Positions 22,005 to 51,743 of a stretch of 64,000 bases of DNA are shown here, in pieces. The notes under the pieces were generated by a model. It did no database searches, was not told the DNA's origin, and saw only the letters and a program-made list of their open reading frames with translations. The stretch comes from Candidatus Bathyarchaeota archaeon. GTDB lineage: Archaea > Thermoproteota > Bathyarchaeia > 40CM-2-53-6. The position numbers were made by a program, and so were the translations under genes. The DNA is taken from positions 96,001 through 160,000 of the forward strand of contig CAVPLU010000013.1 in the NCBI GenBank assembly GCA_963706285.1. Reading direction: 5' to 3'. Position 1 is the stretch's first letter. Each line of letters starts with the position of its first letter.

Positions 22005-22132
22005 TGGGGTTGGCAGCTGTCCAAGTTTCGCGTGGCCTTGCGGAACACACTACTGCCTGAATCGCCTGGGAGATTCACTTCCGTGTTCGGAATGGGAACG
22101 GGTCCTAGCTCCCAGCTATGGCCGCCAGCTCC
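22005..22132 (-). rRNA. rrf: 5S rRNA (not linked to 16S/23S here)
   Basis: GGCGGCCATAGC...ACCCGTTCCCATTCCGAACACGGAAGTGAA...GCTGCC. Confidence 0.95.
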
Positions 22133-32553: not shown

Positions 32554-32675
32554 TGGCGCCGGGAGAGGGATTTGAACCCTCGCGGCCCCAAAGGACCACA
32601 GGCTTTGTGTCCTCGATTCCAGGCCTTGGCTCCTCAAGTTGGGATCTGCCCCGTACCAGGCTCGGGAATCCCGGC
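32554..32675 (-). tRNA. tRNA-Ser(GGA) with two predicted introns (32625-32645 at 29/30; about 32605-32616 in the anticodon loop)
   Basis: GCCGGGA/TCCCGGC G CCA acceptor, long variable arm, GGTTCAAATCC. Confidence 0.82.
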
Positions 32676-49976: not shown

Positions 49977-50862
49977 CTATCCGCTAATTGTATTCAAGAA
50001 TGCAAGAGCCGAGTAGACCGCTTCTTCAGTTCGGACGCTCTGCGTTCCTTGATCTGGAACAAAGTTCACAGTGAATGCTGCAACCGTGCTGAGTTTCATG
50101 ACCCTCTTGTGCGATGATCTCATGAAGTCCTCGTTTCGGGGAGCCGAATGCAAGGAGTACACTGGAAGCTCCCGTTATCGATGTCCTCAATTGCTCAAGC
50201 ACTGCGTCCACTTTCTCTCCGAGTCTTGACGTGGCGATAACCACGTCCGGCCCGCTCTCTTGAATGAACCTCCCCAGAGGAAGGTTCTTCAACGTAACCC
50301 GGAAGCCCCAATATATGTCTATCCGGCTGTGATCGATCAACTCAGCGACGATCTTCGGAGCCACTCTGTTGATCCGAACAGACACACGAGATCCACGATC
50401 GAGTCTTGCAGGGATTTCCGCGAGCGATCCAACTCCGATGTCAACCCGACTAATTTGCGCGTTCACCTCCGTCACCACTCCCTCTCTGAGGTCGCCGACC
50501 TTCAAATCGGATGGTCTGGGAGAGACTGGATGATTAGGAGTGCGAAGAGGCGGGAGAATCCCCGCGAAACGCAACTCAGGATTCATTCGCACCAGATGCT
50601 TTCTCAAGTGTTGGGGCGTTTCCATGTAGCTAAGCACTGAGTCAATGAAGTGTCCTTGACTTGCTGATTCACCAGCCGGTAGGTCGGCGTAGATCACAAC
50701 TTCGTCGACTCTGAAGATTCCGAGCGCCCGCCCAAGGAAACCGAGCCGACTCGTCTTTTCCCGGAGGTGAGGGATGTCGGCGACGAATGAACATGGAACC
50801 GCCACCGTGAGCTTCCATCGTCTCTTAAGAGGAGGAGCGTACGCCTGCCCGAGCGCGTTCAT
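49977..50862 (-). CDS. SPOUT RNA methyltransferase, DUF171 family (frameshift near 50090)
   Basis: IFRVDEV, ETPQHLRK, GILPPLRTPNH, QGTQSVRTEEA. Confidence 0.88.
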
Positions 50863-50952: not shown

Positions 50953-51396
50953 TCAGAGATCAAGGATATACCGGGCGACGTACCCTTTCCGAGCAGCGCT
51001 TACTTCCATTCGATGATAGGTGACCGCCTTTATCTCAACCTTCGCAGGATGGCGACCCCTCACGAAGATGCCTCCCTGTGCCTCCGCGACAAGGCGCACA
51101 TTTTCGTTCTGTTCCTCGATCTTCTCTACATGAAACTTCGAATAGACTTTTCCATCTAGGTCAAACTTCAGCAGGAGCTGCTCAAGCCAATCGTGAAGGA
51201 GAGAGACCCGATCATGAGCAGTCACCTCAAACTGATCTGTGAATTCGGACTTGATCGCGGTCGGATCGGTCATAACATCGAACATTGCAAACGCAGACTC
51301 CTCAAAAACGGCAGCAAGCGTCGGCGCATGCACTTCGACATACGCATCAGTCATGTGTGGTAGAAGCTTGTGTCGTGAACGCCCCTGCTTTGGCAT
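50953..51396 (-). CDS. Archease (RtcB RNA ligase cofactor)
   Basis: PHMTDA, EIKAVTYH, C-terminal ILDL. Confidence 0.92.
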   Translation of the reverse strand: MPKQGRSRHKLLPHMTDAYVEVHAPTLAAVFEESAFAMFDVMTDPTAIKSEFTDQFEVTAHDRVSLLHDWLEQLLLKFDLDGKVYSKFHVEKIEEQNENVRLVAEAQGGIFVRGRHPAKVEIKAVTYHRMEVSAARKGYVARYILDL

Positions 51397-51534
51397 GAGA
51401 TCTTCGACATGACAACCGTATTCGGACGTAAATGCGTTCTTGCGCGCCTCACTTGTCAACTCGGACAGTTTCCGTCGGCAAAGTCTTTTAGATGACTCGG
51501 TCTCGATACAGATCTTGTGGTGCCGGGAACACCT

Positions 51535-51692
51535 GCCGGGATATGAGTGATAGTCTCGCATCCCGAAGGCCGAGTGGATTAACGACCCATGGTGGTCGGT
51601 CTATAGGCGCAGGCCTTGAGTCCGCAAAATGCCGGTCTGGAGAGCCTGTGGCCCTTTGGGCCTCGGGGGTTCGAATCCCTCTCCCGGCGCCA
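51535..51692 (+). tRNA. tRNA-Ser(TGA) with three predicted introns (51543-51567, 51582-51604, 51621-51642)
   Basis: Spliced GCCGGGATGGCCGAGTGGATTAAGGCGCAGGCCTTGAGAGCCTG...GGTTCGAATCCCTCTCCCGGCGCCA; BHB helices CGGG/CCCG, GGAT/GTCT, CTTG/CTGG. Confidence 0.88.
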
Positions 51693-51743
51693 AATCTACG
51701 TGACAGAGCGGCAAGACTGCACGAACCGGAGGGAGCAATACTC

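Follow-up and report, generated by a model that had tools for sequence, protein, structure and literature searches.

Transfer RNA (tRNA) genes with up to three introns are known in Thermoproteales (PMC4090602, PMC4033280, PMC4390854, PMC3218864, PMC8450103). In the passages of these papers that we found, examples are the tRNA-Pro(UGG) gene of Pyrobaculum islandicum, with introns at positions 25/26, 37/38 and 56/57, and a multi-intron tRNA-Glu(UUC) gene in P. calidifontis. Such genes go together with a broad-specificity alpha/beta endonuclease and a tolerance of relaxed splicing motifs (passages of PMC4090602, PMC4390854, PMC4033280 and PMC8450103), and we liken the locus described here to them. 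It lies in a different lineage, at positions 51535-51692 (+) of a 64,000-nt stretch of the genome of a Candidatus Bathyarchaeota archaeon (assembly GCA_963706285.1, contig CAVPLU010000013.1, positions 96,001 to 160,000), the whole of which we call the window. From comparison with related sequences we conclude with high confidence that it is a tRNA-Ser(UGA) gene with an encoded CCA end and three introns that would be removed by splicing; this confidence applies to the gene model and its splicing, and the role of the leader discussed below is a separate matter. Like the Thermoproteales genes, it has introns of the bulge-helix-bulge type, one canonical and two non-canonical. Archaea are well known to have multi-intron tRNAs, and in this respect the gene is an ordinary further member of that group. 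It also has a copy of the 5' acceptor strand just upstream, in what would be the leader of its transcript; no leader copy is mentioned for Thermoproteales in the passages found.

Other described systems resemble the locus in single features. In Asgard archaea, according to the available parts of a 2026 preprint (bioRxiv 10.64898/2026.10.13.758758), most tRNA genes are likewise interrupted, by about two inserts each; standard software misses D-arm inserts of about 22 nt, and introns have been gained and lost repeatedly at sites able to form a splicing motif. A difference is that the preprint places acceptor-stem and junction inserts among a few 'other' cases; its main text does not use the word 'leader', which the other papers use for split or permuted tRNAs. 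Introns in the acceptor region are mentioned in a passage of PMC12397907, and the 3/4 introns of Thermoproteales (a 2008 study, as cited in an excerpt of PMC4090602) likewise lie inside or beside the 5' acceptor strand. When an intron is in or beside this strand, as those introns and the first intron here are, its splicing motif competes with the acceptor stem. Position 8/9, where the first intron of our gene lies, is not in the list of non-canonical positions in the excerpt of PMC4090602, a list that ends in 'etc.'.

In the split and tri-split tRNAs of Nanoarchaeum equitans and Caldivirga maquilingensis and the permuted tRNAs of Thermofilum pendens, in the excerpts at hand, outside sequence likewise pairs to build the endonuclease substrate, and permuted tRNA genes are betrayed by unusually long 5' leaders (passages of PMC3218864 and PMC4390854). 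In those systems the splicing motif is made by leaders that pair with one another; the leader here is predicted to pair with the gene's own 3' acceptor strand, in place of the 5' strand, and to take no part in the motif. The leader copy would work somewhat like the leader of a split tRNA, and the gene is not a member of the split or permuted group: its four exons are colinear, on one strand and within 158 nt, and the copy is complementary to the 3' acceptor strand. We found neither 8/9 introns nor leader copies of the acceptor strand in the literature passages that our searches returned, which did not extend to the primary catalogues and supplements. As far as these searches reach, an acceptor-proximal intron paired with a leader copy is an undescribed variant.

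The gene consists of four exons, all on the + strand. Exon 1 (51535-51542; tRNA positions 1-8) comprises the 5' acceptor strand and U8, exon 2 (51568-51581; positions 9-21) the 5' strand of the D stem and most of the D loop, exon 3 (51605-51620; positions 22-37) the 3' strand of the D stem, the 5' strand of the anticodon stem and the anticodon TGA (51617-51619), and exon 4 (51643-51692; positions 38-76) the 3' strand of the anticodon stem, the long variable arm, the T arm and the acceptor 3' end, with the 3' acceptor strand at 51682-51688, the discriminator G at 51689 and the encoded CCA at 51690-51692. Intron 1 (51543-51567, 25 nt, +) lies between positions 8 and 9, intron 2 (51582-51604, 23 nt, +) between positions 21 and 22, and intron 3 (51621-51642, 22 nt, +) at the canonical position 37/38. 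The exons joined by coordinate make an 88-nt RNA that ARAGORN calls as a class II tRNA-Ser(tga) and draws with a 3-bp D stem, a long variable arm, G73, an encoded CCA and TGA in a 7-nt loop. This RNA is identical at 82 of 88 positions to L183, a fully intronless and colinear Ser(UGA) gene from the same order that scores 57.9 bits on the Rfam tRNA model, so removal of the introns restores a standard tRNA. The ARAGORN drawing and the uninterrupted CTTGAGA anticodon loops of orthologues together give it every feature of a class II tRNA-Ser of the UGA isoacceptor. Since three deletions yield both a complete class II cloverleaf and this degree of identity, the observation is far beyond chance. The original prediction, made from the letters of the window, had proposed these three intron positions and an ordinary class II tRNA-Ser after splicing; the coordinates and naturally uninterrupted relatives bear out the former, and the ARAGORN call with the match to L183 the latter.

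Standard software misses the gene as it stands in the genome. ARAGORN reports no genes in the whole window, and none in the region under four intron settings, and Rfam finds no tRNA match in the window at gathering score. When E-values up to 10 are allowed, the only Rfam model to touch the gene is tRNA-Sec, with a partial match of 16 bits on the 3' part (exon 4).

A DNA search of 40 relatives yielded 20 Ser loci, which we extracted and dissected. All seven other members of the genus have three introns at the same places, with diverged intron sequences, and five orthologues in three other families of the order also have all three. Four of the 20 loci, from a sister genus (L009, L010, L015 and L017), are without intron 1 and read continuously from position 8 to 9; they and L183 provide the intronless form of the first junction. 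The spliced D-arm pattern is present uninterrupted in 20 of the 401 genomes of the class covered by a pattern scan, among them that of L183, and a reversed-pattern control gave no matches. In three loci from two further genera (L018, L019 and L020) introns 1 and 2 are kept and the anticodon loop, CTTGAGA, is uninterrupted. Each junction and the anticodon are therefore matched by at least one natural uninterrupted sequence, which fixes all three junctions and the UGA anticodon. The junctions and anticodon are in this way established by relatives, from which we infer that splicing takes place. Comparison with orthologues had been suggested along with the original prediction, and it supports the exon/intron model, the anticodon and the intron positions alike.

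The intron content of this gene varies among the relatives. The third intron of L018-L020 is at 29/30 instead of 37/38, which shows turnover of intron position between genera. Another combination is found in L186 (genome G026, from another family of the order), a Ser(UGA) gene with intron 1 and a leader copy matching at 6 of 7 bases, without the D-loop intron, and with two inserts in its anticodon arm, one near 29/30 and one at 37/38. A degenerate intron-1 pattern proved too loose for a collection-wide contig scan: it gave at least 120 matches, all bacterial among the matches listed, and we presume them to be due to chance.

A passage of PMC12397907 puts the scissile phosphate at the third base of a 3-nt bulge, with cleavage falling between that base and the second, and this rule, applied to all three introns, yields exactly the junctions of the intronless orthologues. 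In intron 1 the 3' part, CCCG, pairs with acceptor positions 3-6 (CGGG) over 4/4 pairs, and the outer helix is 2 bp long (G1C2 with G10C11); the 3' cut site is in a 3-nt bulge, AA/G (the slash marks the cut), and the 5' cut site, AT/A, is in a relaxed loop. This central helix is 4/4 in all 16 orthologues that have the intron, the motif is strict in other families, with an abutting inner helix of 3-7 bp, and the junction has no equivalent slid position. Intron 2 has the central helix GGAT/GTCT (4/4, two of them G-U), clean bulges TA/A and AT/A, a directly abutting inner hairpin of 5 bp (CGACC/GGTCG) and an outer helix of 1 bp. Its central helix is 4/4 in 20 of 20 orthologues. Compensatory substitutions have occurred in this helix and in the inner one, where 17-18 of 18 distinct sequences keep pairs 1, 2 and 4, as C-G, G-C, T-A or A-T. 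As read from the sequence, a rightward shift of intron 2 by one base yields an identical product, and 21/22 is chosen for its 4/4 central helix. Intron 3 combines the central helix CTTG/CTGG (3/4) with bulges AG/T and AG/A, an outer helix of 7 bp and an inner helix offset by 1 nt. It can be slid 1-3 nt leftward with the product unchanged, and its central helix is 4/4 in the congeners L003 and L004. The helices that had been named beforehand for introns 1 and 2, and the 22-nt intron at 37/38, are thus all present in the sequence. All three introns have the central 4-bp helix of bulge-helix-bulge introns, with 4/4 pairs in introns 1 and 2 and 3/4 in intron 3, and none has the strict hBHBh' form, with flanking helices on both sides; they belong to the relaxed class.

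The copy in the leader, which was not among the elements listed by the original prediction, is an exact repeat of the 7 nt of the 5' acceptor strand, at 51522-51528. It is part of an element at 51518-51528 (+) that is complementary to the 3' acceptor strand, the discriminator and the CCA over 11 pairs, one of them G-U. A 6-nt spacer (51529-51534, +) lies between the copy and the mature 5' end, and RNase P would be expected to cut after 51534. Among five distinct aligned sequences of the genus the copy is invariant and the spacer varies; the Ser genes of this genus also share, without variation, the three bases that precede the copy and are complementary to the discriminator and CC. A candidate archaeal TATA-like box, CTTTTAGAT, can be read at 51485-51493 (+), which would possibly set the transcription start a few bases ahead of the leader copy; in a second tRNA family, the orthologues have TTTAATA/TTTAAATA motifs upstream of their own copies. 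A bacterial-type promoter scan of the locus found nothing, the bacterial model not being applicable to an archaeal host.

Within this genome the copy accompanies introns close to the acceptor stem. We scanned the genome for a T arm followed by a 3' acceptor strand and then, upstream, for the complement of that strand, and obtained 33 distinct tRNA-like genes. Leaving out one doubtful candidate, all 6 genes with an intron directly after position 7, 8 or 9 have a 7/7 copy, 0-13 nt upstream, compared to 0 of the 26 genes with an uninterrupted 8-15 region, four of which have a 6/7 match (Fisher exact probability about 1e-6 by our own arithmetic). One of the six copies, that of the Met gene, was recognised by eye because it overlaps G1 by one base, and scores 5/7 by a uniform measure over 35 nt upstream. 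The six genes are those for Ser(UGA), Cys(GCA), Arg(CCG), a Met(CAU)-type tRNA and two of unassigned isotype; apart from the window gene they are at G000:C12:81715-81880 (-), C12:74183-74345 (+), C4:348149-348334 (+), C4:313719-313946 (-) and C3:165472-165787 (-), with introns at 7/8, 8/9 or 9/10. The gene on C3 is 241 nt long and must contain several more inserts.

The same association is seen among the relatives. We scored all distinct loci of four tRNA families, the orthologues of the three families besides Ser coming from the same 40 relatives, by taking the best match within 32 nt upstream and counting at least 6/7 as a copy. In the Ser family a copy is present at 14 of 17 loci with the intron and 0 of 23 without it. 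The corresponding counts are 13 of 13 and 1 of 5 for Cys, and 10 of 10 and 0 of 3 for Arg(CCG). The GCCGCCG family has a copy at 25 of 25 loci with the intron, and no intronless locus was found. For the four families together (8/9 or 9/10 intron), this amounts to 62 of 65 loci with the intron and 1 of 31 without. Intron and copy come and go together in three tRNA families. Orthologues of the Met tRNA were found just within the genus, hence they allow no comparison of presence and absence.

Folding of the precursor suggests what the copy may do. With its leader (51516-51692), the precursor has a predicted free energy of -92.3 kcal/mol (z = -5.02), and none of 200 shuffled sequences folded as well. 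The minimum free energy and centroid structures are both cloverleaf-like: 51518-51528 pairs with 51682-51692 over 11 pairs, the real 5' strand pairs with TCCCG of intron 1, and the D, anticodon, variable and T arms all form, with each intron as an extension. When the window gene is folded without its leader, the normal acceptor stem forms and the CCCG of intron 1 mispairs with the T arm. In the minimum free energy folds of all six precursors of this genome the copy pairs with the 3' acceptor strand. By partition function, in a test where the pattern chose the wrong copy in two Arg loci, the probability of this pairing is 0.99 for the window leader and at least 0.93 in each of the 10 Ser orthologues that were scored and have a 7/7 copy; of 12 Cys orthologues, 11 reach at least 0.85. 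The central helix of intron 1 has a probability of 0.87-0.99 in 8 of the 10 Ser orthologues (RNAfold).

Because the central helix of intron 1 uses acceptor bases 3-6, the acceptor stem and this splicing motif are mutually exclusive. We infer that the leader is transcribed, that splicing occurs, and that events follow the order below. With a promoter near 51485-51493, the primary transcript would begin a little upstream of 51518, and each intron with its neighbouring exon bases would form a bulge-helix-bulge-like motif. The leader copy would pair with the 3' acceptor strand and the CCA end, keeping the body of the precursor cloverleaf-like, and the real 5' strand, left free, would pair with intron 1 to form its motif. 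The predicted fold accommodates the three motifs together, so that the alpha/beta endonuclease could then cut each of them, and RtcB, aided by archease, would ligate the exons. After splicing the freed 5' strand would displace the leader copy, whereupon RNase P would remove the leader by cutting after 51534; the CCA is already encoded. We lean, by a little, towards the view that the leader copy acts as a helper that lets the precursor fold for removal of intron 1. For the more general proposition, that introns at 7/8 to 9/10 depend on a leader-encoded decoy that masks the 3' acceptor strand and CCA until they are spliced, we would put the chances at even.

Several observations weigh against parts of this interpretation. 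The central helix of intron 1 is well predicted just for Ser, with a mean probability of 0.06 for Cys and Arg(CCG), and for Ser a control with shuffled copies stood out weakly from the native sequences (mean P(H) 0.52 versus 0.61). At 11 bp, the pairing of the leader outweighs the real acceptor stem, of 7 bp, and could hinder final folding. The relatives are not independent, so that the counts of loci overstate the number of evolutionary events. Intron 1 is relaxed in this genus: besides the outer helix of just 2 bp, its 4-bp inner helix is displaced by 3 nt on the 3' side, which leaves the 5' cut site opposite three unpaired bases, in a small internal loop and not in a clean bulge. The central helix of intron 3 has a mismatch. 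Public RNA runs gave no splice joints; they covered only the conserved T arm (51643-51696), which is shared with other tRNAs, and such coverage says nothing for or against splicing. These data were three RNA or possibly-RNA runs and one DNA run, and a search of public runs returned 23, none with half of the locus words, labelled as wetland, sediment and groundwater metagenomes, with small shares. Finally, L018, L019 and L020 retain intron 1 with a leader match of only 5/7, from which it follows that the leader copy is not indispensable. The same three loci have the strongest strict intron-1 motif, with a 7-bp abutting inner helix; a poor copy where the motif is strongest fits a helper that is useful but not indispensable.

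The leader copy might instead have no function and be a footprint of how the intron arose, or of a local duplication, that persists because too little time has passed to erase it. Just 0-13 nt separate each copy from the real strand downstream, as expected of a local duplication, the copy is lost or degenerate at 3 of the 17 Ser loci that still have intron 1, and the abstract of bioRxiv 10.64898/2026.10.13.758758 describes the arrival of archaeal tRNA introns as an open question. We nevertheless regard this account, the main alternative to a helper role, as rather unlikely. Whether one compares members of the genus or several families of the order, the copy stays the same and the spacer and the bases upstream differ, and an invariant copy beside diverging flanks is a signature of selection; 7 nt are too short to be maintained by gene conversion; in Ser the conserved complementarity is longer than the duplicated 7 nt and takes in the discriminator and CC; and the six acceptor sequences, all different, are each matched by a copy of their own. 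A quite different suggestion is that the upstream copy is the true 5' acceptor strand, with 51529 to 51567 forming one longer intron. The same CGGG/CCCG helix with the 3' part of the intron would be possible, and the spacing from the copy to the TATA-like box resembles, by eye, that from TATA to +1 in intronless orthologues. The product would, however, have A and not the near-universal U at position 8, and the base after the upstream copy varies (A, C or G), whereas the downstream copy is always followed by T, as in intronless genes. Moreover, no inner helix would abut the central helix, where orthologues have 3-7 bp in the 8/9 register. For these three reasons we rejected this reading, which we consider very improbable.

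Two other readings concern the identity and state of the gene, and we rejected both. If the third intron were removed in another register (51616-51637), the product would be a tRNA-Ser(GGA). The risk of such a mis-call, to which the original prediction had drawn attention, is real, since ARAGORN accepts this product as Ser(gga), and by hand reading its central helix would also be 3/4. The orthologues contradict it, with CTTGAGA uninterrupted in L018-L020, intronless L183 and others, and with 4/4 central helices in the 37/38 register in L003 and L004; nor is it needed, given a separate Ser(GGA) gene at 32554-32675 (-) of the window. It is scarcely plausible that the anticodon is GGA. Nor do we give much more than a token chance to the idea that the locus is a decaying pseudogene whose inserts are junk that is never removed, for which one could cite the failure of standard finders to call the gene and the lack of expression data for the locus in the public RNA runs examined. 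Its exons are conserved across an order, its inserts vary in sequence and length yet keep their helices by compensatory changes, and crude scans found no other Ser(UGA) gene in a genome that is 89% complete. Most tRNA genes of this genome are, in addition, interrupted in the same way.

The genome encodes the proteins that the proposed processing calls for. Two endonuclease-family proteins, of 186 and 174 amino acids, with genes in the regions of G000:C12:149004-149243 and C6:75200-75433, each match PF02778 and PF01974, and the solved chains nearest to the stronger of them (2cv8_A, 3p1z_B, 3ajv_B and 2zyz_B) are titled tRNA-splicing endonuclease. The presence of two genes suggests an endonuclease of the two-subunit (alpha/beta) type, presumably forming a heterotetramer; this type has been linked to a broad substrate range (passages of PMC4090602 and PMC5829648). 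An RtcB ligase is encoded as two adjacent pieces, so the endonuclease and the RtcB-type ligase that intron splicing requires are found in the same genome. The two RtcB frames overlap slightly, at G000:C4:105729-107043 (-), with profile positions 1-243 in a frame of 281 amino acids and 236-426 in one of 226; the arrangement could reflect a frameshift, an error of assembly or a ligase gene that is split by nature. The RNase P RNA is present as well (183.7 bits). Directly upstream of the tRNA gene and divergent from it lies a gene for archease (PF01951, E = 1.1e-34; window 50953-51396, -), whose domain begins at residue 65 of the longest frame, the likely start being a Met at about 51396. Archease serves the RtcB tRNA ligase as a cofactor. 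The gene that follows it encodes a putative RNA methyltransferase of the SPOUT type (PF02598, E = 1.6e-46; window 50026-50862, -), and together with the tRNA gene the two look like a small tRNA-processing neighbourhood.

The genome is an archaeal metagenome-assembled one of 2.13 Mb in 21 contigs. Besides the Ser gene the window contains an archaeal SRP RNA (225-545, -; 161.4 bits) and a 5S rRNA (22008-22129, -; 80.6 bits), which served to assign it to Archaea. Rfam gives 17 tRNA matches in the 2.13 Mb, the full-length ones 88-129 nt long, and the 33 tRNA-like genes from our scan range from 88 to 241 nt, many of them needing two or three deletions to yield a tRNA. In most of them the CCA is encoded; a few have CTT, CCT or TCA at the end instead. 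A census of 34 sites by a bulge-helix-bulge filter with ARAGORN gave many ambiguous solutions and missed the correct model of the window gene; we took from it that multi-intron genes are common and did not use it for counts. The Ser(GGA) gene at 32554-32675 (-) is 122 nt long, with an encoded CCA, and is likewise missed by ARAGORN and Rfam; after removal of about 21 nt from the anticodon stem and about 12 nt after the anticodon, ARAGORN calls it as tRNA-Ser(gga). Its acceptor stem is identical to that of the Ser(UGA) gene, and it has no 8/9 intron and no 7/7 copy, the best match being 6/7 at 23 nt upstream.

The Ser(UGA) gene matters mainly for annotation, as the lineage would seem to be without a tRNA-Ser(UGA) if judged by ARAGORN and Rfam. 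A 7-nt direct repeat of the acceptor strand just upstream is a signature that gene finders could use for acceptor-proximal introns. The leader copy suggests, in concrete and testable form, how an intron can occupy a site at which its splicing helix and the acceptor stem are incompatible, and the idea of a decoy predicts that splicing precedes RNase P cleavage. Because the copy comes and goes with the intron in several families, it may bear on the origin of archaeal tRNA introns, and the pair of decoy and intron may also be a readable footprint of how such introns are gained. If the decoy is real, it would be a previously undescribed folding device of precursor tRNAs that sets the order of splicing and RNase P cleavage, and it would explain the persistence of introns at sites otherwise incompatible with the tRNA fold.

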